Shown: positions 17,270 through 45,362 of the stretch, piece after piece
Numbering within the stretch: position 1 is the stretch's first letter
Layout of the letters: each line of letters starts with the position of its first letter
NCBI GenBank assembly: GCA_964416295.1
Contig: CAYQDV010000001.1
Location: 1 to 52,988, forward strand
DNA length: 52,988 bases
Origin: an uncultured Planctomycetaceae bacterium
GTDB lineage: Bacteria; Planctomycetota; Phycisphaerae; UBA1845; UTPLA1
Direction: 5' to 3'
Made by a program: the position numbers and the translations under genes
Notes under the pieces: generated by a model
What the model was told of the DNA's origin: nothing
What the model saw: the letters and a program-made list of their open reading frames with translations, nothing else
Databases searched by the model: none

Positions 17270-19711
17270 ATGAGTAACGCGGCAGGCATGTTGCCGATCC
17301 GTGCTTCGGTGTCGGGGCGATGGCAGGTCCCGGTGTTGAGCATGGGTCTTGTCCTGTTCGGCGGCGGCTTGGTTCGATTGGCTGCGAACTATCGATCCCG
17401 GTCGTTCACGGACGACGTCGCACTGACGAAGCGTCTGCGTGACGCGAAACAGCTTCCCCGCGCCAGCGCGTTTCTCGTGGAGCGGCTCAAGGATCAGGAC
17501 CAGCCGCCCTCCCAGCGAGCGGAACTGCACCGGCTGCTCGCCGCCACGATCCACGAAGCCGAAGCACCCCTGACCGTGCACTCGCCGCGCAACGCTACCG
17601 CCATCATCCGCAATTTTCAGGCGGCGGCCCGGCTGACAGGCGACATCGGCCCCGACGACTGGAACCGCGTGGCTGACGCTTACCGGTGGGCGGGAAACGA
17701 GAGCGAGGCGGTCGACGCGTATCGTCAGTCACTTCGGTTGGGGACCGCCGGACCCGACGGGGTTCGGCGACGAATCGTCGAATTGCGCTCGGGCTTCGCC
17801 GGAAAGATCAGCGACGATGCGGAAACCGAGTTGGACGCGATTCTGTCCGACGCGAACGCGTCCCCCGGAAACTATCTATGGGCTGTTGAGCGCAAGACGC
17901 TTCGACTGCTGGACCACGGCGACGCCGCTACGGCCCGCGGCCTGGTGGCGAAGGCAGGTGAGCGGCTGTCGGGTTCGGCCGCGCGGGTGGCGCTTCCCTA
18001 TCTGGATGCCCTTACGTTGTGGCGGTTAGGACTGAGCGATGAAGCGGAGGCTCGGCTCCGCGCCTTGCGAAACGCGTGGGCGGTCCGCGATGAGCTGTGG
18101 GGCAAGTCGGGCTGGCTGCTGGGCAGGATCCAACAGCAGGATGACCGGCCACAGGCTGCATTGTCTTTCTATGACGAGGTGCTTCGCTCATTCGAGACCG
18201 GAGAATTGCACGACGCATGCCTCTTCGGCCGTGCGGAATGCCTGGCGTCGCTAGGCAGGCACGCGCGGGCGCTGGAAACATTCTCTGAACTTCAGGACCG
18301 ACTTCTCGCTGCCCGACGACATCGCTATCTCGATCGGGATACCGTGCGGGCCTCCGTGACATCGATTGGACTGTCGGTGCTCAGCGAGCCGACGGTGGCC
18401 GAGGGCGACCCTCCGGCGGGCGATCGCGAATTGGGCATTCGTTATCTACGACTGGGCTTGGAGATGGTCGAGCCTGCGGACGAGGGAGCGCAAGTGCCCT
18501 ATCTCTCTCGAATCGCCTCCGGCCTGAGCGCGATGGCCGACGCCGCCGTCGATGCCAGCCGGGGAAGGCGGCTGCACCGGGAGGCGGGCGAAGCCCACCT
18601 GCGGCTGTCACGTCTTCAGCGCGACGACGGTGAGGCCTCGGCGCGTTCCAATTGGGAGGCGATCGAGCATTTCGCAAAGGCCGGTCGGCCTCATCGCGTC
18701 ATTGAATTGCTCGAACGCTTTGTCGCGGTACGTCCGTCGAGCCTGCTCCGGCCGATGGCCCTGCACCGTCTCGGACAGGCCTATCAGGCCGAACACCGCT
18801 ATCCGGAAGCGGTGCATTCTTATGATACCGTGATCCATGAGTTCGAGGGACTGCCCGATGCCTTGGCTTCGATGGTGCCGATGGCACAGTGTCTACTTCG
18901 TCAAGGCGGCCGCGAGACCGCTCGCGGCGTGGGGCTCCTACTGGATATCGTCGACGATCGCGGGCCCAAGCAATGGCTGACGCCGCGAGCGAAGGAGTAT
19001 CGCGAGGCCCTCGTTCAACTGGCAACGTACTATGTCGGCGCCAGCGACAGCGAAGTGCCGAATCACGTGGAACGTGCGATCGAACGGTTGGAGGACACGC
19101 TGGCGTTGTATCCGGAAGACCGGCGCGCTCCGGAGCTGACGTTCCTGCTCGCTGATGCCTACCGGCAATCGGCCGTCGGACTTCGCCGGGAACTGAAGAA
19201 GACCGGCCGACCGTCCGCCGCCGACGTGCAAACGTCGGCGTGGGCGAATCGTCTGCAGACGGCGTACCGGTATTTCAATGAGGTTGTCTCGACGCTGGCG
19301 CCACACGATGACGGGACGACGCATGCGCGGGCGGCCGACAAGGATTCTCCGGCGGTGGCATCGGGGCTGAGTGAACTGGAAAGCACCTACCTGCGGATGA
19401 GCTATCTCTATCGCGGGGATTGTCTGTTCGACCTCGGTCGATATGACGAGGCGGTTGCGGCCTATGAAGAGGCCGCTTGGCGGTACGACCACATGCCGGC
19501 GGCGGTGTCGGCCTCCATGCAGATTTATCACTGCTATCAACGAGTCGGGCGGACGGAGGAGGCCCGGGCGGTTTTGGGGCGGCTCCACTGGCTGATCCGG
19601 GCGATTCCCGAGTCGGCGTTTGAGAACGAGCGGGGCATGCCTTCGAAGAGGTATTGGGAAGCGCTGGTCAACCGGCTCGACCGACTGGCTGCCGACGCGG
19701 TCAGCGGCTGA
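17270..19711 (+). CDS. Membrane-anchored tetratricopeptide-repeat (TPR) protein
   Basis: One N-terminal TM helix (WQVPVLSMGLVLFGGGLVRLAA), then ~770 aa of helical-repeat sequence with TPR-like A/Y/L periodicity (e.g. YRGDCLFDLGRYDEAVAAYEEAAWRY). Confidence 0.7.
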   Translation: MSNAAGMLPIRASVSGRWQVPVLSMGLVLFGGGLVRLAANYRSRSFTDDVALTKRLRDAKQLPRASAFLVERLKDQDQPPSQRAELHRLLAATIHEAEAPLTVHSPRNATAIIRNFQAAARLTGDIGPDDWNRVADAYRWAGNESEAVDAYRQSLRLGTAGPDGVRRRIVELRSGFAGKISDDAETELDAILSDANASPGNYLWAVERKTLRLLDHGDAATARGLVAKAGERLSGSAARVALPYLDALTLWRLGLSDEAEARLRALRNAWAVRDELWGKSGWLLGRIQQQDDRPQAALSFYDEVLRSFETGELHDACLFGRAECLASLGRHARALETFSELQDRLLAARRHRYLDRDTVRASVTSIGLSVLSEPTVAEGDPPAGDRELGIRYLRLGLEMVEPADEGAQVPYLSRIASGLSAMADAAVDASRGRRLHREAGEAHLRLSRLQRDDGEASARSNWEAIEHFAKAGRPHRVIELLERFVAVRPSSLLRPMALHRLGQAYQAEHRYPEAVHSYDTVIHEFEGLPDALASMVPMAQCLLRQGGRETARGVGLLLDIVDDRGPKQWLTPRAKEYREALVQLATYYVGASDSEVPNHVERAIERLEDTLALYPEDRRAPELTFLLADAYRQSAVGLRRELKKTGRPSAADVQTSAWANRLQTAYRYFNEVVSTLAPHDDGTTHARAADKDSPAVASGLSELESTYLRMSYLYRGDCLFDLGRYDEAVAAYEEAAWRYDHMPAAVSASMQIYHCYQRVGRTEEARAVLGRLHWLIRAIPESAFENERGMPSKRYWEALVNRLDRLAADAVSG

Positions 19712-19787
19712 GGCGGTGTCTGCGACGAACGGCGGCTTCCGGAGTCGCATTCAGGGAGCGTGTTTCGCGGGATGGGCAGAGTGTGAG

Positions 19788-20288
19788 ATGAGGAGTGACA
19801 TGAGCGATATCCCGGCAGCATTGAGGAACGCGGACACGCGCGAGCGGCTGATCCGCGACCTGGTGCGATTGCTGACGCACCAGCAGACGCTCTACCGACG
19901 CCTTCGGTTATTGGCGCAAAGGCAGCGGACTCTCGTGCTTGGAGATGACGCCAACGCTCTACTGGAACTGCTCTCGGAGCGCCAGCGGCTTGTGGACGGC
20001 CTCAGCGGGCTGAACGGGAAGATTGCCCCTTATCGGAGTCACTGGACGGAGATATACCACGCGTTGGACGATTCGGCGCGCCGCCAGGTCTCGAGCCTGC
20101 TGGAGGAGGCCAACGCGACGCTGGGAGCGCTTCTCAAGGGAGACGGCCACGACTGTGGCACATTGTCAGCGAAACGCGAGCAGGTCGCGGCGCGCCTGTC
20201 CACGATCGACACGGGCAGTTGCGCGAGTGCGGCGTACTCCACCGCAGGCATCGGAACCCACCACACCACGACGGACATGAAAGGCTAG
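19788..20288 (+). CDS. FlgN-family-like flagellar export chaperone (putative)
   Basis: All-helical ~165-aa protein. LVRLLTHQQTLYRRLRLLAQRQRTLVLGDDANALLELLSERQRLVDGL matches the FlgN family pattern. The longest ORF (TTG 19620) overlaps the TPR gene. ATG 19788 or ATG 19800 (AGGAG upstream) is more plausible. Confidence 0.5.
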   Translation: MRSDMSDIPAALRNADTRERLIRDLVRLLTHQQTLYRRLRLLAQRQRTLVLGDDANALLELLSERQRLVDGLSGLNGKIAPYRSHWTEIYHALDDSARRQVSSLLEEANATLGALLKGDGHDCGTLSAKREQVAARLSTIDTGSCASAAYSTAGIGTHHTTTDMKG

Positions 20289-20293
20289 GCGGC

Positions 20294-21229
20294 GTGCAAA
20301 CATCTGTTCCAAGTTTGCGGATCGGCGTGCCGAACCGCCGTGTCCCTGCGCTGGACCGCGGCATTGACGCGGCGTTGCCAGACGTCGCGGTCGCGACCGA
20401 ACGGGAGCGGGAACTGGCCGCCATCATAGGGGCCTACAACGATGTGACCGAGCGTTTGAAGGGCGCCCACGACCGGCTCACGTGTGAGGTGGGGCGGCTG
20501 CGGGACGAACTGCGAGCCAAGAACGAAGAGTTGCGGCGGCGTGAGCGGCTGGCGGCGCTCGGAGAGATGGCGGCGGGGTTGGCGCACGAAGTACGCAATC
20601 CCCTAGGAGGGATCGCGCTGTACGCATCGAAGCTCGAACGGGAACTGAGCGAACAGCCGTCCGCCCGGCGGGCGGCGCACAAGATCGTGCGTGGGGTGAA
20701 ATCGCTGGATCGGCTCATCTCGGAGATCCTGGATTTTGCACAGGAAGACCGCCTTGATCTGGCGGATTGCCGACTCGGCGATGTGCTCGCTGCGGCCCTT
20801 GAGAGCGTGGATGCCTGGGCAACTGAAGGAACCGGCACGATCGTCGTCGAGGCGGCGGCCCACGACCTGCGCCTGACCTGTGACCCGGCCCGCCTGCGGC
20901 AGGTTGTGATCAACCTGCTGATGAATGGACTCCAAGCGGTGCCCGCCGGTGGCGAGGTGCGGGTCTCGGCAGCGGTCTCGCATGACGCGATGACGGAAAT
21001 AGCCATCAGCGATAACGGCCCTGGTATCGCGTCGGATTGCCTGGATCGGATCTTCAATCCCTTTTACACGACGAAGGCGACGGGGACGGGACTCGGCCTG
21101 GCGATCGTTCATCGCATCGTCGAGGCCCATGGTGGAACGATCACGGCGGGCAACGGCCCGCAGGGCGGTGCATGCTTTGTGGTACGGATTCCGAGGCCGC
21201 CACCGGACTCGCTTTCCGGACGGCGATGA
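20294..21229 (+). CDS. Soluble sensor histidine kinase (HisKA + HATPase_c, no TM segments), FlgS/FlrB/FleS-like by context
   Basis: H-box LAALGEMAAGLAHEVRNPLGGI, N-box INLLMNGLQA, and G-boxes DNGPGI and GTGLGLAIV. Preceded by a coiled coil. The start is uncertain: TTG 20219 overlaps the flgN-like gene, and in-frame GTG 20294 follows its stop. Confidence 0.8.
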   Translation: MQTSVPSLRIGVPNRRVPALDRGIDAALPDVAVATERERELAAIIGAYNDVTERLKGAHDRLTCEVGRLRDELRAKNEELRRRERLAALGEMAAGLAHEVRNPLGGIALYASKLERELSEQPSARRAAHKIVRGVKSLDRLISEILDFAQEDRLDLADCRLGDVLAAALESVDAWATEGTGTIVVEAAAHDLRLTCDPARLRQVVINLLMNGLQAVPAGGEVRVSAAVSHDAMTEIAISDNGPGIASDCLDRIFNPFYTTKATGTGLGLAIVHRIVEAHGGTITAGNGPQGGACFVVRIPRPPPDSLSGRR

Positions 21230-21303
21230 GCCGCGGTCTATCGACTCGCAGTGTGCGTCATGGACAGAGATATGAGCAGGATGTTTGAAACCCTCTGATT
21301 GGA

Positions 21304-22740
21304 ATGGAGCAGCCAATGGCACGGATTTGCATTGTGGACGACAAGGATGTCATGCGGGATTCCCTGACGGATACACTCGTCGGTCAGGGGCATGAGGTGA
21401 CGGCGTATCCCGACCCGAAACTGGCGGTCGGGGAACTGCGTTCCTCCGGTTTCGATGCGATCGTCAGCGACCTGAAGATGCCGGAGATGGATGGGATTGA
21501 CTTTCTGCGGGCGCTGCGCTCGCGTGGCGTTGATACGCCGTTTGTGCTGATGACTGCCTACGCCAGCGTGCCGACGGCCGTCGAAGCGATGAAGATGGGG
21601 GCCTTCGACTACATCCAGAAGCCGTTTGAGGCCGACGAGATCGCGATGGTCATTCAGCGGGCGGTCGCCATGGGGAGACTGCGCGGGGAAAACGAGGTGT
21701 TGCGTGCTTCGCTGCATGATCTCGAGGGCGAGCCCCACATGGTCGGCTCCAGCCGTGCGATGCGCCAGATGCGGACGCAACTCGAGCGCATCGCGCGAAG
21801 CCAGGCCACCATCCTCATCCAGGGCGAGAGCGGCACCGGCAAGGAGTTGGCCGCGAGAACAATCCACACCGCCTCCTCGCGCGCCGGCCGGCCGATGCTG
21901 TGCGTGAACTGCGCCGCCCTGTCCGCCAATCTGCTGGAGAGCGAGCTGTTCGGGCATGAGCGCGGCGCGTTTACGGGCGCCGACAAGCTGAGAAAGGGGC
22001 GATTCGAGCTGGCATCGGGCGGAACACTCTTGTTGGACGAAATCAGCGAAGTCCCGCTGCCGCTCCAGCCGAAGCTGTTGCGCGTCCTGCAGGAGAGAGA
22101 ATTCGAGCGCGTCGGCAGCAGTGTCACGCTCCAGGCGGATGTGCGCGTCATCGCAACGACGAACCGCGACCTGTCTGATTGGGTAGCGCGCCGGCGATTT
22201 CGGGAAGACCTCTTTTTCCGTGTGAGTGTGCTTCCCGTGACGATGCCGCCATTGCGCGATCGCCGCGACGACATTTCCGAATTGACGGATTACTTCCTGA
22301 AGCGGATCGCGCGGCGGGAGGGCCGCGAGACACTCATCATGACGAAGCGGGCGATGACCGCGATGGAAACGTATCATTGGCCCGGCAACGTGCGCGAGCT
22401 GTACAACATCTGCGAACGCGCGGTAGTGCTGTGCAACGGCGGATCGATCGACGCCCAACTCATTGAACCCTGGCTGTCGACCAGTACGGAAGTGAAACTC
22501 GAAGGTGTGCGACGCCCCCTCCGGCCGGGTCACATGATGGAAGACGTCGAACGCTCCTTGATCGAACAGACGCTCGTGCAGTTCAACGGTCATCGCGAGA
22601 AGACCGCCAAGGCTCTCGGGATCGGCGTGCGGACACTCGGCATGAAGCTGAAGCGATGGCGGGAGGAGGCCGCGGCCGCCGCCCTGGCACAGCAGCCTCA
22701 GCAGACGCTGATGGCCTCGCCACAGCGGCGCGCCGGCTGA
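21304..22740 (+). CDS. NtrC-family sigma54-dependent response regulator (REC + AAA+ + Fis-type HTH), FlgR/FlrC/FleR-like by context
   Basis: REC domain (ICIVDDKD...DLKMPEMDG), Walker A GESGTGKE, the sigma54-contact loop ERGAFTGA, and C-terminal HTH KTAKALGIGVRTLGMKLKRW. Confidence 0.9.
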   Translation: MEQPMARICIVDDKDVMRDSLTDTLVGQGHEVTAYPDPKLAVGELRSSGFDAIVSDLKMPEMDGIDFLRALRSRGVDTPFVLMTAYASVPTAVEAMKMGAFDYIQKPFEADEIAMVIQRAVAMGRLRGENEVLRASLHDLEGEPHMVGSSRAMRQMRTQLERIARSQATILIQGESGTGKELAARTIHTASSRAGRPMLCVNCAALSANLLESELFGHERGAFTGADKLRKGRFELASGGTLLLDEISEVPLPLQPKLLRVLQEREFERVGSSVTLQADVRVIATTNRDLSDWVARRRFREDLFFRVSVLPVTMPPLRDRRDDISELTDYFLKRIARREGRETLIMTKRAMTAMETYHWPGNVRELYNICERAVVLCNGGSIDAQLIEPWLSTSTEVKLEGVRRPLRPGHMMEDVERSLIEQTLVQFNGHREKTAKALGIGVRTLGMKLKRWREEAAAAALAQQPQQTLMASPQRRAG

Positions 22741-25920: not shown

Positions 25921-26964
25921 ATGGCGAGTGCGGCTGCCGTGACTGAGTCCGAAACCGACATCGAGGAGATGTCCGGGCTGCGCAAGGCGGCCATCCTGCT
26001 GGTGAGCATGGAAAAAGATGCCGCTTCGCAGATGATGAAGAAGCTCAGTTCGTCAGCCGTTGAGGACGTGACCCAGGAGGTCGCCATGTTGGGGGGGACC
26101 ACCGAGGCCCAGCGTCAGGCGGTCATCGCCGAGTTTCACGGGCTGGCTCTCGCGAAGGCCTATTCGGAACAAGGGGGAATCTCGTATGCGCGAGATCTGC
26201 TACGCAAGACGCTGAACAAGGACGAGGCCGACCGGATCATCGCCCAGATCGAAAACCAGGTCTACTCAAAGCCGTTCAGTTTTCTCCAGAAGACGGAAAG
26301 TGAGAATCTGCTGACGTTCATTCAGGATGAACACCCGCAGACCATCGCGTTGATTCTGGCGCACCTGACGTCTCAGAAATCGAGCGAGGTGCTCGCCGGC
26401 CTGCCGCTGGAGAAGCAGGTGGAGGTTTCCAATCGGATATCACGAATGGAGCAGACCAGCCCCGACGTCATCAAGGAGGTGGAAAAGGGGCTTCAACACC
26501 GGCTCAGCGGCATGATGAGCGAGCGATTGCAACGCGTCGGCGGTGTGGCCGCCGTAGCCGAGATGCTGAATCTCACCGACCGCGCTACGGAGAAGGCGAT
26601 TCTCGAGGCCATCGAGTCGGACGACCCTGAACTTGTGGAAGAGATTCGGCGGTTGATGTTTGTGTTCGAAGACATCCTGCTGGTCAACGACCGTGGCATT
26701 CAGGCCGTGTTGAAGGAGATCGAGAACAGTGAGTTGATTCTCGCCCTTCGGACCGCGAGCGAGGAACTCAAGGAGAAGATATTCGCCAATATGTCGGACC
26801 GCGCCGTGCAGTTGATCCGGGAAGAGATGGAGTACATGGGGCCGGTCCGCGTGCGGGATGTCGAGATGGCTCAGCAAAAGATCGTCGACGTCGTTCGGCG
26901 GCTCGAGGATGCCGGCGAGATCATCATCGCCGGCCGCGGCGGCGAGAGCGAGTTGATCGTCTGA
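25921..26964 (+). CDS. fliG: Flagellar motor switch protein FliG
   Basis: 347 aa. LRKAAILLVSMEKDAASQMMKKL..., MFVFEDILLVNDRGIQAVLKEI and the C-terminal torque helix region are FliG-typical. GGAGG RBS upstream. Confidence 0.92.
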   Translation: MASAAAVTESETDIEEMSGLRKAAILLVSMEKDAASQMMKKLSSSAVEDVTQEVAMLGGTTEAQRQAVIAEFHGLALAKAYSEQGGISYARDLLRKTLNKDEADRIIAQIENQVYSKPFSFLQKTESENLLTFIQDEHPQTIALILAHLTSQKSSEVLAGLPLEKQVEVSNRISRMEQTSPDVIKEVEKGLQHRLSGMMSERLQRVGGVAAVAEMLNLTDRATEKAILEAIESDDPELVEEIRRLMFVFEDILLVNDRGIQAVLKEIENSELILALRTASEELKEKIFANMSDRAVQLIREEMEYMGPVRVRDVEMAQQKIVDVVRRLEDAGEIIIAGRGGESELIV

Positions 26965-29310: not shown

Positions 29311-29784
29311 ATGGCAGTGCAACGCGTGTTCCGTTTTGAGACGCTCCGGCGTCTGCGCAAAGCCAGGGAAGATGAGAGGAAACGGATCGTCGCCGCGCGG
29401 TTGCGGACCATCGCCTCGCTCGGGCGGCAGCGCGACGTGCTGGAATCGCAGGTTCGGCAGCAGACCGACGTCCTGCGCGAGGCGCTGATCCGGCCTCGAG
29501 CGGAGATCGCCGGATTGAGGTGGGGTCGACATTGGGTCAGCCGGCTGCGCCGTCAGGCCCTCGAGATTGAAGCAAGAATTGCCGAAGAGCGGGCGCTCCT
29601 TGCGCAGGAGCGGGCCGAACTGACCGCCGCGCGAAAGGAAACCAAGGTCATGGATCGATTGAAGGAAAGACAGCGCGATCTGCTGATGGCCGAGGAGGCG
29701 CGGCGCGAGCAACGGGACACGGATGAGTTGAACACGGTCCGATTTGTATTCGCGCGAATCGCCGCCGGAGACGACGCATCGTGA
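29311..29784 (+). CDS. fliJ: Flagellar export protein FliJ
   Basis: 157-aa Arg/Glu-rich coiled coil (FRFETLRRLRKAREDERKRIVAARL...). Conserved slot after fliI. Confidence 0.65.
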   Translation: MAVQRVFRFETLRRLRKAREDERKRIVAARLRTIASLGRQRDVLESQVRQQTDVLREALIRPRAEIAGLRWGRHWVSRLRRQALEIEARIAEERALLAQERAELTAARKETKVMDRLKERQRDLLMAEEARREQRDTDELNTVRFVFARIAAGDDAS

Positions 29785-30440
29785 AGCGACTGGTGTCGAT
29801 TCTGTCCGTCGTGTCCTTGTTGAACGTCATGGCCTTGGCGGCCTTGGCGGGATACGCCTGGAGCGGAGGCTGGTTGGCACCGGACCGTGTGCGAGCGGCA
29901 GCGAGCATCTTGCGGGACGGGGTCGTGGACGGCGTCGAGGAGGTCGCTTCGACACAACCCACCGGCGCGGCCGCGACGATCGGCGAGCGAATCGAGCAGA
30001 ATGAAGAGGCCGTCCGCGTTCGCCGGGCCGAGCTGGATCGCCGACAGCGCGAGATCGAGCAGGCATGGCAACAGTTGGAAACCCAGCAGTTGGCGTTTCT
30101 CAAGGAGCGAGAGTCCTTCGAGACGGCAAGAAGGAGAGAGGCTGCTGAGGCCGACGAGCGTGCTCGGAAGGCGGGCGACAGCGGTTGGCAGCGGGAACTG
30201 GAACTGATGGGAACCGTGAAAGCCAAGCTGGCGAAGAGCTTATTGAAGGACAAGCCGGACGCCGAGGTCGTCAAGGTTCTGATGGAACTGGATATTCGCA
30301 AGGCCAAGAAGATCGTCGAGCAGTGCAAGACGTCAGAGGAGCGCCAGTGGATCGGGCGTATCCTGGGTCAACTTCAGGATCGCAGTGCGTCGCAGGCGGA
30401 GGCCCTGGGTGCAGGCACGGTGTCAAACCCGGGAGCCTGA
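29781..30440 (+). CDS. MotE/YlxF-like flagellar protein (N-terminal TM, coiled coil, MgtE_N-like C-terminus)
   Basis: TM segment LVSILSVVSLLNVMALAALAGY, a charged coiled coil, and KLAKSLLKDKPDAEVVKVLMELDIRKAKKIVEQ, which resembles the MgtE_N/MotE family. GTGA overlap with the fliJ stop. Same slot as ylxF in Bacillus. Confidence 0.5.
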   Translation: MKRLVSILSVVSLLNVMALAALAGYAWSGGWLAPDRVRAAASILRDGVVDGVEEVASTQPTGAAATIGERIEQNEEAVRVRRAELDRRQREIEQAWQQLETQQLAFLKERESFETARRREAAEADERARKAGDSGWQRELELMGTVKAKLAKSLLKDKPDAEVVKVLMELDIRKAKKIVEQCKTSEERQWIGRILGQLQDRSASQAEALGAGTVSNPGA

Positions 30441-34768: not shown

Positions 34769-34960
34769 ATGATCTCGGTCACACGACTGAACGGCAAGCC
34801 GTTTGTCATGAACGCGGAGTTGATCAAGACCATCGAATCGACGCCGGACACGATGGTCACGCTGATCAGTGGCGAGCACCTGGTCGTCAAGGAGTCTGTG
34901 GAGGAGGTGGTTCGCCGCGCGGTGGCCTACTGTCGGTCCATCCGGGCCTTCCCGGCGTGA
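34769..34960 (+). CDS. flbD: Flagellar protein FlbD
   Basis: 63 aa. MISVTRLNGKPFVMNAELIKTIESTPDTMVTLISGEHLVVKESVEEVV matches the FlbD family. Canonical slot after flgE. Confidence 0.8.
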   Translation: MISVTRLNGKPFVMNAELIKTIESTPDTMVTLISGEHLVVKESVEEVVRRAVAYCRSIRAFPA

Positions 34961-34995
34961 CGCCGCCGACGCGCAGTTGGTGCGCCTGTGAGCGG

Positions 34996-35012
34996 CGCCG
35001 AGGCCCTCGGCG
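34996..35012 (+). terminator. Short GC-rich hairpin after flbD (candidate operon boundary)
   Basis: cgccgagg-c-cctcggcg, effectively a 6-bp stem with a 5-nt loop, followed by tatgtcc. It lies at the start of the 280-nt flbD-fliL gap. Weak. Confidence 0.3.
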
Positions 35013-35240
35013 TATGTCCTCCGAGCGTCGTAGCCCGGCAGGTGAAGACTCGCGCAGTTTCCGCCGCCTGCGCGCACCGGCACACTCGACCGCGTCCCTG
35101 CAGAAACTGCGCCGGCCGCGCCGTTGTTGACAGGAGTCCTATCTGACACGCCGGTGGTGCGGTGGAGCGGGCGCAGGAATCGACCGATAAACACCTGGTT
35201 GCATGCAGAAGCGTGACGCAGACGGAACAGGTGGGTCGCC

Positions 35241-35777
35241 ATGGCTGCTGATTCGGAATCTCCCAAGACAGAACCTGAAGAAGCTCCTGCCGGTGCGCCG
35301 GCGAAGCGTCCCAAGAAGATGCTGACGTTCGGCCTCATCGGCGGTGTGATGTTGGTCGAAGGTTTGGCGATCTTCGCTTTCATGAAAATGTACGGGACGG
35401 AGCCGGACCCGACGCTGGGGCTGGAACTGGCGCCAACCACGAACCCGTGGGCGGAATACGCGGAGATTGAGGTCGCCACGTTGCGCGTGGCCAACACCAG
35501 CGCGGGGCGGACGATTCTGTACAACGTCAAGATCGTTGTCACCGTTCACCATGACAAAGAGCAGCAGTTGAAGGACATCTTCGAGAAGCGCAAGTGGACG
35601 ATCGACGACGCCATCAGCCGCCTGATCCAAGAGGCTTCGGAGCTCGAGATGAGTGAGCCGGGCAAGGAATCTTTGAAGCGCAAGGTGCGCCACGAGCTCA
35701 GCCAGATCATCCATGACGATGCGATGGTCGAGGAGGTTCTCATTCCTGAGCTGATCGCTCTTCCGACCGGTTTCTAG
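35241..35777 (+). CDS. fliL: Flagellar basal body-associated protein FliL
   Basis: N-terminal TM segment (LTFGLIGGVMLVEGLAIFAFM). YNVKIVVTVHHDKEQQLKDIFEKRKWTIDDAISRLIQEAS...SLKRKVRHELSQII matches the FliL family pattern. Confidence 0.8.
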   Translation: MAADSESPKTEPEEAPAGAPAKRPKKMLTFGLIGGVMLVEGLAIFAFMKMYGTEPDPTLGLELAPTTNPWAEYAEIEVATLRVANTSAGRTILYNVKIVVTVHHDKEQQLKDIFEKRKWTIDDAISRLIQEASELEMSEPGKESLKRKVRHELSQIIHDDAMVEEVLIPELIALPTGF

Positions 35778-35864: not shown

Positions 35865-36869
35865 ATGTCGGACGACGAACCCAACACGCCCGAAGGTCTG
35901 TCGCAGGACGACATCGACGCGGCGCTGAACGCGGCCCAAGGGCCCACCGGCGATGAGTCGGCGACGCCGTCCGATGTGGAGGGACCTGCGGACGCGGCAG
36001 ACTCGTCCGGGCAGGGTACCGCCGATGCGGTCGACGAGTCTGCGGATGTCTCGGATGCCCCTGAGGCTCCGGCGCCCGACGCGGCTGAGGACGATGCGAC
36101 TGGCGGGACACCGGTCGAAGCGGAAGGCGTTGGAGCGTCGTCTGCGGAGAGTGGCGACGGCGAGGGTGGACTGTCTCAGGCGGACATCGATGCGGCGTTA
36201 TCGGCGGTGGCAGGTGACGCCGGCGAATCCGGCGCATCTGCACCGGCCGAGACTCCGGCGGCCGTTGCGGAGGCCGACGTCTCAGGATTCACCCAAGAAG
36301 ACATCGACGCCGCTCTGCTCGGAAACACCCCGTCCGACGCCGATTCCTCCGCGCCGCCGGAGAATTCGACCTTGAATCCGGACGGAAGCCCGAAGCTGGA
36401 TACGACGGGCAAGCCCTTTGACGCGGCGGCGGCGGCGATGGAAGCGGCCATCGCCGAAGAGAAGGCGGCCCAGGCGGAAGCGGCGCGTGCCGAGACCCGC
36501 TCTCCGGCACCGGCGGCCGTGGTGACGATGCCTCCACCGCCCCCCGAGGCCCGCTCCCTGGATTTGCCTGATCTCGGTCAGGTGCCGGCCGGTGCGCCGG
36601 AGGACCAGGGCGTCGAACTGCTCAACGACGTGGACCTGAATGTCAAGGTCGAGCTGGGGCGCGCGGAGATGGCGATCGAAGACGTGTTGCGACTTGGAAG
36701 CGGTTCCATCGTCGAATTGGATAAGTTGGCCGGCGATCCCGTGGACGTGCTGGTCAACGAGCGGCTCGTGGCTCGAGGCGAAGTCCTGATTCTCAACGAC
36801 AACTTCTGCGTGCGAATCAGCGAGATCACGGGTGACGAAGCAAGCAGTGAACAGGCGGTGGCGGAATGA
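35865..36869 (+). CDS. fliN: Flagellar motor switch protein FliN with a ~250-aa acidic N-terminal extension carrying three LSQxDIDAAL motifs
   Basis: C-terminal SpoA/FliN domain LNVKVELGRAEMAIEDVLRLGSGSIVELDKLAGDPVDVLVNERLVARGEVLILNDNFCVRISEI. The N-region is Asp/Glu/Ala/Ser/Pro-rich. Motifs lie at 35898-35927, 36171-36200 and 36287-36316. ATG 35865 is preferred over TTG 35856. Confidence 0.85.
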   Translation: MSDDEPNTPEGLSQDDIDAALNAAQGPTGDESATPSDVEGPADAADSSGQGTADAVDESADVSDAPEAPAPDAAEDDATGGTPVEAEGVGASSAESGDGEGGLSQADIDAALSAVAGDAGESGASAPAETPAAVAEADVSGFTQEDIDAALLGNTPSDADSSAPPENSTLNPDGSPKLDTTGKPFDAAAAAMEAAIAEEKAAQAEAARAETRSPAPAAVVTMPPPPPEARSLDLPDLGQVPAGAPEDQGVELLNDVDLNVKVELGRAEMAIEDVLRLGSGSIVELDKLAGDPVDVLVNERLVARGEVLILNDNFCVRISEITGDEASSEQAVAE

Positions 36870-37660
36870 AACGACCAGAGTCTCGTTTCGATCGTGGCCT
36901 CCGCATCATCCGTTTGGGTGCGGCGTATGCGACGACGGTTGCAGCGTTGCTGACTGCGTCGGCACCGCTCCGGGCCGACAGCGTCACTCCGGCGCACGCC
37001 GATCGAGGAGCTTCGACGGTCGCCTCTCGCGATTCCGGCGATTCCGGAGACGCGGTCTCGTCTTGGATTTCGGGCGTATCGTCTCAGCCGGAGGACGTGG
37101 AGCGGACGCTTCGCCGTGGCCGGACCGGGAAGGTAGAACGGAGCCGGAACGATGTTACACCGCATAAGGGATCAGCTCGGCGCGTGGTCCAGTTCTGGTG
37201 GCCGACGCTCGCGATTCTGGGTTTTATCATCGTTGCCGCTCTGGCAGCGCGGCGGTTTTTTCCACAGATCCGGCGCAGGACCGGAGGCGGCGCGATCAAG
37301 GTGTTGGCGCGCCATCCGCTGTCGAACAAACAGAGCCTTTGCTTGATTCGGCTGGGCCGGGGACTGGTGCTGGTCGGTGTGACGTCCGACAGGATACAGA
37401 CCCTGGCACGCATTGAAGATCCCGAAGAGGCGGCGTCTGTCATCGGTATGATCGAGGGAGGCCGCTCCGATTCGTTTACCGCCGCACTGAACCGGCTGGC
37501 TGATCGAGATGGCGGCCCGGTAGCGCAGGAAAACCGGGCGGCCTGGTCCGTCCGGTCATCGCGAGACAGGCTGGCACAGACGCAGGAAAGCGTTCAAACA
37601 CTGGTCGCTCGAGTCCGCGGGATGGCTGGCTCGTTGGGGGCATCGGCGGAGCCGACGTAG
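36866..37660 (+). CDS. fliO: Flagellar biosynthesis protein FliO (long form)
   Basis: TM segment WWPTLAILGFIIVAALAARRFF followed by IKVLARHPLSNKQSLCLIRLGRGLVLVGVTSDRIQTL, the FliO core. ATGA overlap with the fliN stop. Carries an extra ~100-aa N-terminal region with a signal-like segment. Confidence 0.65.
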   Translation: MKRPESRFDRGLRIIRLGAAYATTVAALLTASAPLRADSVTPAHADRGASTVASRDSGDSGDAVSSWISGVSSQPEDVERTLRRGRTGKVERSRNDVTPHKGSARRVVQFWWPTLAILGFIIVAALAARRFFPQIRRRTGGGAIKVLARHPLSNKQSLCLIRLGRGLVLVGVTSDRIQTLARIEDPEEAASVIGMIEGGRSDSFTAALNRLADRDGGPVAQENRAAWSVRSSRDRLAQTQESVQTLVARVRGMAGSLGASAEPT

Positions 37661-43200: not shown

Positions 43201-44470
43201 CGCCCTTGCCCGCGTCAAGGCGGACCTGGGTCGCGACGCGGTGATTCTGCACACACGCACCCTCAAGCGGGGCGGCGTGTTGGGAGTGGGCGCCCGATCG
43301 CAGGTCGAGATTACGGCGACGGCGGATGCTCGCCTGGTCGACGGTGGGGCACAAATGTCGTCGCGTACGGCGCCACAGCCTCCGGCGTGTGCACAGCCGG
43401 AGACGCCCGCGGGCGCGCGACGCGAAGATCCGCAGACCGTGGCGGAGGCCCCGGCCTCGCGCCTCGATCTGAGGGCCGGACAGACATCGGATGCGGTGCT
43501 GCGCCGCGATGTCGAGGCCATCCGTGACATGGTGGATGAGTTGCTGCGCGACCGGCGTCGAGCACAGCAACCTCAGTTGCCGGTTGAGCTGATTGACTAT
43601 TACACCGAACTCGTCGGGCAGGCGGTCGCGGCCGAGTTGGCGTCCCGACTCGTCGATCACGTCCGACGACGGCTCGACGATCCCGGAAAACCCGGCCCGG
43701 CGAGACGCCTGACCGGTGCGGCCGCCACGGCCCGCGACCGACGGATTCGCCAGGAACTGGCGCAGTGCCTCAGCGAGATGATCCCACCCGCGTCACCCCT
43801 GAAGCTGAAGACGGACGCTGGGCCGACCATCGTCGCGATGGTCGGACCCACCGGTGTCGGCAAGACGACGACGATCGCCAAGCTGGCGGCAAACATGAAA
43901 CTTCGAGAGCACAAGCGCGTCGGGCTGGTGACGATCGACACCTATCGGATCGCGGCGGTCGAACAATTGAAGACCTACGCGCAGATTTTGGACGTCCCGT
44001 TGCTATCGGTCGTCACTCCCGAGGAGATGAAGACGGCCATCGCTCGCCTGTCCGACCGCGATCTGATCCTGATCGATACCGCCGGCCGCAGTCAGAAGGA
44101 CGAGGCCCGTCTTGCGGAACTGAAGCACTTCCTCGCAGCCGCCGAACCGAACCAGGTTCACCTGGTGCTGTCGACGACCAGCCGTGAGGATGCCATCCGG
44201 GACACGATTCAGCAGTTCGCGGCCGTGGGGGCGGATCACCTGATCTTCACGAAGCTGGACGAGGCCCTCGGGCTGGGAGTCATTCTCAACGTGCTGGAGT
44301 CGGTCGACATGCGGTTGTCCTACCTGACCAACGGGCAGTCGGTCCCAGACGACATTGAAGTGGGGACGGCCCATCGCGTGGCGCGTCTGATTCTGCAACC
44401 GGAGGAGCGGGCGATACCCAACGGCTTCGACCGGCCGACCCTGGATGTCACCGTCGGCGAAGGGGTTTGA
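43163..44470 (+). CDS. flhF: Flagellar biosynthesis SRP-type GTPase FlhF
   Basis: MQLKTYRARSMSDALARVKADLGRDAVILHTR N-terminus, G1 MVGPTGVGKTTTIAKLA, G3 DTAGR and TKLDE. Overlaps the flhA end by 38 nt. Confidence 0.88.
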   Translation: MQLKTYRARSMSDALARVKADLGRDAVILHTRTLKRGGVLGVGARSQVEITATADARLVDGGAQMSSRTAPQPPACAQPETPAGARREDPQTVAEAPASRLDLRAGQTSDAVLRRDVEAIRDMVDELLRDRRRAQQPQLPVELIDYYTELVGQAVAAELASRLVDHVRRRLDDPGKPGPARRLTGAAATARDRRIRQELAQCLSEMIPPASPLKLKTDAGPTIVAMVGPTGVGKTTTIAKLAANMKLREHKRVGLVTIDTYRIAAVEQLKTYAQILDVPLLSVVTPEEMKTAIARLSDRDLILIDTAGRSQKDEARLAELKHFLAAAEPNQVHLVLSTTSREDAIRDTIQQFAAVGADHLIFTKLDEALGLGVILNVLESVDMRLSYLTNGQSVPDDIEVGTAHRVARLILQPEERAIPNGFDRPTLDVTVGEGV

Positions 44471-44471
44471 G

Positions 44472-45362
44472 ATGAGTGTCGCGCTCGCGGATCAGGCCGC
44501 CGGGCTACGGCGGTTGATGGAGCATCAACGGTCCGTGCGAATGGCCCGTCCCTCCGCGCCGCAGTCGTCTTGCCGCTGCGTCGCGGTAGCGAGCGGAAAA
44601 GGCGGAGTCGGGAAGACCGTCGTGGCGACCAATCTGGCGATCGCGCTGGCGCGGGGCGGCCACCGCACGGTCCTGGTGGATGCCGACCTCGGGACCGCCA
44701 ATGCCGACGTGGCTCTGAACATCGAGACGCCCTATGACCTGTCGCACGTGATTCGCGGCGCACGCGCGATCGACGACGTCGAAGTTCCTGTGGTGCCGGG
44801 GCTGACGCTCATCGCGGGCGCCTCCGGGCTGGCCTCGGTCGCCGATCTGAGTCCGTGCGACCGGCTGGCGCTGGTCGACGGGCTGGCGACGTTGGAGACG
44901 TACGCCGACATCTTGCTGCTCGACTGCGGGGCCGGCATTTCGCAGAACGTCCTGGCATTCGCGCAGGCAGCGGACGAACTGCTCGTTGTGACGACGCCTG
45001 AGCCGACCTCTCTGACGGACGCGTACGCCTTGATCAAGGTCATCAGTCGATCGCCGCACCCTCCGGCCGTCGGCACCGTGGTCAACCTGGCTCGCGATGT
45101 GGCGGAAGCGGAAACCATCGGCCGGCGTGTCACGTCGGTGGCGGCGCGTTTTCTCGGCATGACCGTGGGAATGGCCGGGCACGTGTTGCGGGACGAGCAC
45201 GTCCCGATGGCGGTGTGCCGGCGCGTGCCGGTGGTCGTGCGTTATCCCGGCAGCGCGGCGGCTGCGTGTCTGTTAACACTGGCAAGACGGTTCGACGGGT
45301 CGTCGCCGCGGGATCAGCGGAGGACCGGCTTCTTCCGGCGCGTCGTGGATATTTTCAAGTGA
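44472..45362 (+). CDS. flhG: MinD/ParA-type ATPase FlhG (FleN/YlxH)
   Basis: Deviant Walker A ASGKGGVGKTVVATNLA and DADLGTAN. C-terminal amphipathic membrane-targeting helix GFFRRVVDIFK. ATG 44472 lies 1 nt after the flhF stop. Confidence 0.88.
   Translation: MSVALADQAAGLRRLMEHQRSVRMARPSAPQSSCRCVAVASGKGGVGKTVVATNLAIALARGGHRTVLVDADLGTANADVALNIETPYDLSHVIRGARAIDDVEVPVVPGLTLIAGASGLASVADLSPCDRLALVDGLATLETYADILLLDCGAGISQNVLAFAQAADELLVVTTPEPTSLTDAYALIKVISRSPHPPAVGTVVNLARDVAEAETIGRRVTSVAARFLGMTVGMAGHVLRDEHVPMAVCRRVPVVVRYPGSAAAACLLTLARRFDGSSPRDQRRTGFFRRVVDIFK

Follow-up and report, generated by a model that had tools for sequence, protein, structure and literature searches.

Docking Peptides of the Flagellar Switch

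The N-terminal EIDAL peptide of FliM is an experimentally defined docking site of the flagellar switch, and peptides of the same type occur in three tandem copies on the protein considered here, a long FliN encoded in a Bacillus-type flagellar operon of an uncultured Phycisphaerae bacterium. The gene lies on a 52,988-bp contig (CAYQDV010000001.1) of an NCBI metagenome-assembled genome (MAG), and the whole contig is referred to below as the window. In the passages of three sources that deal with the EIDAL peptide (PMC6946799, PMC12826062, bioRxiv 10.1101/2022.04.21.489128), the peptide of FliM is described as the high-affinity site for phosphorylated CheY (CheY-P), the peptide of Shewanella is both necessary and sufficient for the binding of FlhG, and the partner of FlhG in Bacillus subtilis is FliY, not FliM. 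These EIDAL passages make no mention of tandem copies. In the same passages, Henderson et al. 2020 (PMC6946799) report that EIDAL is not confined to FliM but is sporadically found in full or degenerate copies on FliN and FliY, and that FliN and FliY do not fall into clean clades. The FliN and FliY motifs treated there are single and come from 12 species of four groups, with tandem arrays and Planctomycetota lying outside this coverage.

FliY of B. subtilis and Thermotoga maritima shares with the long FliN a place in the operon behind fliL/fliM and ahead of fliO(Z)/fliP, an N-terminal EIDAL-type peptide, and a C-terminal SpoA domain, which in the long FliN is very close to the T. maritima structures 1o6a/1yab. 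However, FliY contains a CheC-like phosphatase domain that is lacking in the long FliN, and CheY-P phosphatase activity is therefore not expected of the latter. Moreover, FliY has one docking peptide instead of three, and the long FliN adds an acidic disordered tether of 150 amino acids (aa) and a conserved helix. Canonical FliN, as in Escherichia coli and Salmonella (8umd, 1o6a, 1yab), has the SpoA domain in common with the long FliN, which is indeed named FliN by NCBI and JGI. Canonical FliN nevertheless has a short N-terminus without EIDAL and an adjoining fliM, whereas the protein described here is extended by 250 aa that hold three motifs, and its gene has no adjoining fliM. The N-terminal peptide of FliM, LSQxEIDALL, is near-identical in consensus to the three motifs; as in FliM, the first copy is near the N-terminus and a short helix is predicted amid disorder. 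The differences are that the peptide is here located on FliN, that it is repeated, and that it reads DIDA-A-L instead of EIDA-L-L.

Tandem copies are also found on a FliY. A search with a synthetic five-motif query recovered a FliY fragment (P0248; locus L091, 2-1913) that has three N-terminal EIDAL-like motifs ahead of its CheC domains and is encoded by a frameshifted fliY on a low-GC metagenomic contig (36.8% GC). It resembles the long FliN in carrying three tandem motifs on a protein of the fliY slot, but differs in that the CheC domains are kept, a canonical fliM lies directly upstream, and the organism is a low-GC one. An earlier note on this DNA, made from the sequence alone, had taken one motif copy per switch protein as the rule, and this canonical FliY beside fliM contradicts it. 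Because EIDAL has already been reported on FliN and FliY and tandem arrays exist on FliY elsewhere, the array of the long FliN is an undescribed, lineage-wide variation on the known design of a FliN/FliY with a docking peptide, and not a new switch design.

Domain Content and Docking Motifs of the Long FliN

The open reading frame (ORF) encodes 334 aa followed by a stop codon; the coordinates of its parts and of selected neighbours are collected in Table 1. Its sole Pfam domain is FliMN_C (PF01052) at aa 252-321 (E = 1.3e-22; 79.9 bits, threshold 23.8), and the NCBIfam cutoff for fliN (TIGR02480) is passed with 98.6 versus 84.05 bits. The best NCBIfam match is NF005995 (FliY), which scores 107.6 bits (cutoff 218), with profile positions 271-371 alone aligned to the C-terminal ~100 aa. 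The FliM profile TIGR01397 gives 27.1 bits against a cutoff of 219.6, and its match is restricted to SpoA. No CheC-like domain (PF04509) was found in the product by Pfam, with NF005995 far under its cutoff, and no N-terminal or middle domain of FliM (PF02154) was found by Pfam, TIGR01397 or a FliM hidden Markov model (HMM). The nearest solved structures, FliN of T. maritima (1o6a/1yab, 1.9e-21) and FliN of the Salmonella C-ring (8umd), match aa 245-324 only. These results are in agreement with the earlier assignment of the C-terminal part to FliN/SpoA without a CheC-like domain, and, judged from its sequence, the product is a C-ring subunit of the FliN type. Weak Pfam matches to Pex14_N, UBZ_FAAP20 and Pou that fall on the motifs were dismissed as chance.

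All three peptides fit the EIDAL-type consensus [LF]SQxEIDALL with one deviation, Ala for the first Leu of 'LL', and the first of them is near the N-terminus in a disordered setting. The likeness to the FliM/FliY docking motif, which had been proposed previously, is thereby borne out by the family consensus and by the near-N-terminal first copy. The three proposed copies of [LF][ST]Q-x-DIDAAL are all present, although the interval given for the third was one base too low and is corrected here to 36288-36317. The region that holds them (aa 1-165) is composed of 22% Ala, 15% Asp, 11.5% Ser and 11.5% Gly, with Glu and Pro also abundant, and has a net charge of -40. Chance is no explanation for the motifs, since not a single one was produced in 200,000 shuffles of aa 1-249. 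The pattern Q.[DE]IDA[AL][LM] has no further occurrence in the window in any of the six frames.

In the AlphaFold2 model, which has a mean per-residue confidence (pLDDT) of 58, isolated helices are located exactly at the three motifs and the linkers show values below 50; a long helix (aa 185-210) and the SpoA strands are also modelled. The N-terminal part had been described earlier as acidic and apparently disordered, which both the net charge and the pLDDT outside the motifs support. Such a modelled pattern is as would be expected of short linear motifs that fold upon binding, like the FliM N-terminal peptide on CheY.

The DNA copies of the three motifs are 79-83% identical and differ synonymously, indicating that the copies are old. 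The motifs share 29 of 30 residues with those of the closest orthologue among the matches listed (75% identity; NCBI name 'FliN [Phycisphaerae bacterium]'), at 8 synonymous codon differences; the linkers share 94 of 135 residues (70%) and SpoA 70 of 73 (96%). By these counts, the motifs are under purifying selection, with a conservation equal to that of the SpoA domain while the linkers drift. Binding of the motifs to CheY-P, to FlhG or to both is predicted by analogy with the described peptides.

Copy Number in the Long-FliN Subfamily

Homologue figures refer to the best 120 homologues, which are the matches listed. These proteins are 190-380 aa long, have PF01052 as their only domain and, where named, are FliN of Planctomycetota, Phycisphaerae or Phycisphaerales. 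One strict motif copy is present in 48 of them, two in 38, three in 17, four in two and six in a single protein, and 14 have none. A looser pattern yields 250 instances with the consensus G[LFM]SQ[ADE]DIDA[AL][LM], in which Q and D are invariant (250/250) and I is present in 237/250. The first motif begins at residue 12 in 48 of the 120 proteins, consecutive copies are spaced by a median of 39 aa (range 13-170), and the median distance from the last copy to a conserved segment downstream is 38 aa. Motif 3 is the most widely conserved copy, with Q144, D148 and A149 each at least 90% conserved in alignment A1.

Motif 2 is tandemly duplicated in the orthologue L006/P0002. The 75%-identical orthologue has a fourth motif by a 17-aa tandem insertion. 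As far as can be read from these sequences, copy number changes between close relatives through local duplication. The earlier note had made its reading depend on conservation among orthologues; the presence of the motif is indeed kept within the subfamily, whereas the number of copies is not, ranging from 0 to 6. Because the motifs are conserved in orthologues, the multivalent docking suggested in that note is a reasonable reading.

The conserved segment and the motifs go together. In a sample of 80 species-representative genomes, all but two of which bear the label of a Planctomycetota lineage, in most cases Phycisphaerae, the segment is accompanied by a docking motif in 24 of 26 loci, whereas a motif is found in 5 of the 54 loci without it. 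This co-occurrence defines a 'long FliN' subfamily. The helical segment may correspond to Pfam PF28396.1, for which precomputed matches exist on some of the homologues.

FliN is short and motif-less in Phycisphaeraceae, Poriferisphaera sp. WC338, Algisphaera and Phycisphaera sp. In the Tepidisphaeraceae (L077, L054, L058), the FliN N-termini have one or two degenerate elements, IDQA[AS]IDELL[KR]QA[SN]FEDP, which may be a diverged relative of EIDAL. A FliN with IDQAAIDEIL is also encoded in a typical Tepidisphaerae-type flagellar cluster (L057, JBLNDH010000220.1) under the label 'Bacillota bacterium MAG104', which is probably mis-binned or mislabelled. When the representatives were searched exhaustively with aa 1-165, nothing came back but the query and one spurious match, an EF-hand-like repeat protein (P0121).

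Location of fliM

A single ORF and no fliM between fliL and fliO had been noticed earlier, and both coordinates and domains agree with this. No FliM domain was detected by Pfam or NCBIfam in any real-looking ORF of at least 150 aa in the window. A FliM HMM, derived from E. coli FliM (exact sequence), the FliM of locus L087, and sequences of B. subtilis and T. maritima, gave no N-terminal or middle-domain match among all ORFs of at least 80 aa in 86 loci and the window; the same HMM recovered an unrelated FliM fragment at 1.4e-45. The order ...flbD-(motA-motB)-fliL-fliN-fliO... without fliM was found in every related locus examined (~90 Phycisphaerae loci), and no fliM is present within 10 kb of fliN in these loci. 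In 80 loci, the gaps from the upstream flagellar gene to fliN are too small for fliM, a 330-aa gene.

The fliM-less slot is also found in Phycisphaeraceae, Poriferisphaera, Algisphaera and Tepidisphaeraceae, whose FliN does not carry the canonical motif. Since the empty slot is common to motif-less lineages, it reflects a class-wide rearrangement that is older than the motif array and independent of it, and the connection drawn by the earlier note between the motifs and the missing fliM does not hold. The families with an empty slot include motile cultured members, namely Poriferisphaera heterotrophicis, which has a single polar flagellum, and Terricella alpina, which is motile.

Among the matches listed (best 120 per search), there is no Phycisphaerae FliM sequence. 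A tblastn search of plasmids with the L087 FliM gave no record of the Planctomycetes-Verrucomicrobia-Chlamydiae (PVC) group, and a MotA search for relocated motAB beside fliM returned, among the matches listed, main-cluster copies only. Two split clusters (L033 and L080) have only housekeeping genes and no fliM in their upstream regions. L087 itself was the sole match when metagenomes were scanned for the DNA pattern Q[DEAG]xDIDA...YDFR; its FlgB, FlgC and FliE are only 27-41% identical to those of the window.

FliG of the window retains the EHPQ motif (DEHPQTIALIL); EHPQ(R) is the established FliM-binding site of FliG. In addition, fliM is listed in an M1A02 Phycisphaerales MAG and in Terricella alpina (PMC9119077, PMC13514998). 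Because EHPQ is kept, fliM is listed in these two Phycisphaerae genomes, and the long FliN has no substitute for the FliM middle domain, we infer that fliM is encoded elsewhere in the genome. The same three points speak against a FliM-function fusion, which the earlier note had offered as a second possibility.

Proposed Role of the Tandem Motifs

It is fairly probable that the long FliN carries multiplied EIDAL-type docking peptides with CheY-P as their ligand, FlhG possibly binding too. The protein would be a FliY-derived FliN that lost the CheC-like phosphatase domain and kept the N-terminal docking peptide and SpoA, and the docking peptide would have been multiplied, to three copies in this case, along a long and strongly acidic disordered tether. 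The SpoA domain would assemble the lower C-ring together with the FliM encoded elsewhere, and each motif could become a short helix upon binding CheY-P and possibly FlhG. In the Salmonella-type stoichiometry, a ring contains ~34 FliM and ~100 FliN. With three motifs on each of ~100 FliN, a C-ring would therefore expose ~300 flexible, tethered capture sites, which would raise the local ligand concentration at the switch and pass the ligand to the surfaces of FliM and FliN that set the rotation sense.

Several observations weigh against this proposal. The strict motif is missing from 14 of the best 120 homologues and altogether from most FliN proteins of cultured lineages, and it must therefore be dispensable for a working motor. 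The canonical Leu of EIDALL is replaced by Ala in 169/250 instances, giving the DIDA-A-L form, and owing to this clade-specific residue the partner specificity may differ; the replacement hints at co-variation with the partner. Furthermore, no cheY is present in the window, and the placement of fliM elsewhere in the genome is reached by inference.

A more far-reaching version of the proposal holds that FliN has taken over the docking of CheY-P (and FlhG) from FliM in the long-FliN Phycisphaerae, that their FliM, encoded elsewhere, is without the N-terminal peptide, and that the C-ring bears a brush of ~100-600 tethered docking helices on acidic linkers. We regard this as quite unlikely. If true, it would describe a multivalent 'antenna' that alters the gain and dynamic range of the switch, with a copy number tuned by frequent duplication and loss.

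Alternatively, the motifs might be mainly handles for FlhG, which sets flagellar number and position, and not for CheY. FlhG would then bind the EIDAL peptides and recruit FliM/FliN to the polar basal body under assembly, a task that it performs via FliY in Geobacillus/Bacillus, and additional copies would raise the avidity for dimeric FlhG. The cluster contains flhF and flhG as a complete pair, and the encoded FlhG has the DQAAGLR activator motif (aa 16-22), Walker A and a C-terminal amphipathic helix. The position in the fliY slot would also fit, as B. subtilis FlhG binds FliY and Shewanella FlhG needs only EIDAL according to the passages cited above, and so would the single polar flagellum of one cultured Phycisphaerae species. 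However, FlhF/FlhG clusters are equally present in Phycisphaerae with a motif-less FliN. The same peptide binds CheY-P in all studied systems, so that the two roles are not exclusive. A role mainly in FlhG binding is a serious possibility that we nonetheless consider unlikely.

It could also be argued that the repeats are neutral decoration, in which a low-complexity acidic linker propagates a short repeat without binding function. The highly variable copy number (0-6), the low complexity and fast evolution of the linkers, and the family members without a motif would be explained in this way. Decoration would not explain why the motif residues are conserved like SpoA despite synonymous drift, why the consensus is position-specific (Q and D in every instance, I in nearly all), or why the first copy has a fixed N-terminal position. 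The motif is, moreover, identical to an experimentally defined binding peptide, as described in the EIDAL passages, and is not reproduced by shuffling; mere decoration is accordingly very improbable. Hardly credible is a loss or functional absorption of FliM with the FliN docking peptides taking over in a FliM-less or fused switch, because the lack of fliM in the 53-kb contig, near fliN in the related loci and among the matches listed is outweighed by the missing FliM middle domain (CheC-like, GGXG) in a product whose TIGR01397 match of 27 bits covers SpoA only, by the intact EHPQ of FliG, by the same empty slot in lineages with a motif-less FliN, motile cultured ones included, by the fliM reported in an M1A02 MAG and in Terricella alpina, and by a multi-motif FliY next to FliM elsewhere (P0248/L091).

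The preferred reading, multiplied docking peptides for CheY-P, bears on the workings of the switch in general. To our knowledge, all motors studied so far carry a single docking peptide on each FliM or on each FliY. How CheY-P occupancy is converted into ultrasensitive switching, and what share tethering peptides have in it, is still debated. A series of FliN proteins with 0-6 copies on tethers of varied length would offer a natural titration of valency for tether-and-transfer models and for the sharing of the peptide between CheY and FlhG. The plain database label 'FliN' hides the motif array, and gene-order arguments such as 'fliM missing here' can mislead where a rearrangement is ancient.

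Operon Setting and Further Observations

The flagellar cluster, as annotated by Pfam and NCBIfam, makes up the right two thirds of the window. It begins with a histidine kinase and a sigma-54 response regulator, followed by flgB, flgC, fliE, fliF, fliG, fliH, fliI and fliJ, then by a 219-aa ORF, fliK, flgD, flgE, flbD, fliL, fliN, fliO, fliP, fliQ and fliR, and finally by flhB, flhA, flhF, flhG and fliA. Apart from the lack of fliM, cheY and the che genes, the genes are ordered as in the fla/che operon of B. subtilis, and the ORF is therefore assigned to the fliY slot. The run fliL-fliN-fliO-fliP-fliQ-fliR-flhB-flhA, which places fliN in the flagellar export/switch operon beside fliO-fliP, is kept in ~90 loci. 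GGAAGG is located 5' of the fliN ATG, and the fliN stop and fliO start share ATGA.

Table 1. Positions in the window of the long fliN, its parts and selected neighbouring features
Feature	Position	Strand	Evidence
EHPQ motif of FliG (aa 137-140), intact	26329..26340	+	translation
fliL, directly upstream, no fliM before fliN	35241..35777	+	weak FliL matches in Pfam and NCBIfam; same neighbour in related loci
Long FliN, fliY slot of Bacillus-type flagellar operon	35865..36869	+	ORF translation; PF01052 only; TIGR02480 above cutoff; homologues
Acidic, disordered N-terminal region (aa 1-165), holding all three motifs	35865..36359	+	composition; AlphaFold2 pLDDT <50 outside motifs
Motif 1, LSQDDIDAAL (aa 12-21)	35898..35927	+	predicted helix 14-24, block pLDDT ~82
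Motif 2, LSQADIDAAL (aa 103-112)	36171..36200	+	predicted helix 105-115, block pLDDT 71
Motif 3, FTQEDIDAAL (aa 142-151)	36288..36317	+	predicted helix 144-152, block pLDDT 71
Conserved segment KLDxxG[RK]PFDxAAAAMxAAIxEE (aa 177-200), helical	36393..36464	+	D179, G182, D186 and E199 invariant; AlphaFold2 helix 185-210
Pro-rich linker and LDLPDLG element before SpoA domain	36531..36578	+	alignment A1 consensus PPPP....PLxLPDF
SpoA (FliN) domain (aa 250-322)	36612..36830	+	PF01052; PDB matches
fliO, start overlapping fliN stop (ATGA)	36866..37660	+	PF04347
flhG, MinD-like ATPase of the same cluster, candidate second motif partner	44445..45362	+	ParA/MinD Pfam matches

The histidine kinase and sigma-54-dependent response regulator (20219-22740) stand directly 5' of flgB-flgC-fliE and are FlrBC/FleSR-like, as in polar flagellates. 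The small, conserved 219-aa ORF after fliJ (29781-30440) has a weak FlbB-like match and the position of ylxF in B. subtilis. In L001-L004, flhG and fliA are separated by another conserved ORF, of 65-100 aa (in L001, 91 aa at 19513-19788). The cluster of the window does not contain motA and motB, and its flbD-fliL gap is only 280 nt (34960-35241), the position that motA-motB occupy in many related Phycisphaerae loci; the stator genes of this lineage must therefore be elsewhere.

The synthetic five-motif query also recovered P0243, P0247, P0249 and P0257, which are small proteins or fragments that contain two or three motifs. P0249 (L088, 4359-4649; L089, 5001-5291) and P0247 (L090, 8-265) are stand-alone proteins of 85-96 aa that consist almost wholly of two or three EIDAL-like motifs. 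Both have non-flagellar contexts, multihaem cytochromes and a ParA/MinD-like ATPase neighbouring P0249, and hydrogenase/Fe-S genes neighbouring P0247. P0247 and P0249 might serve as free decoys or as adaptors, either for CheY or for MinD-type ATPases.

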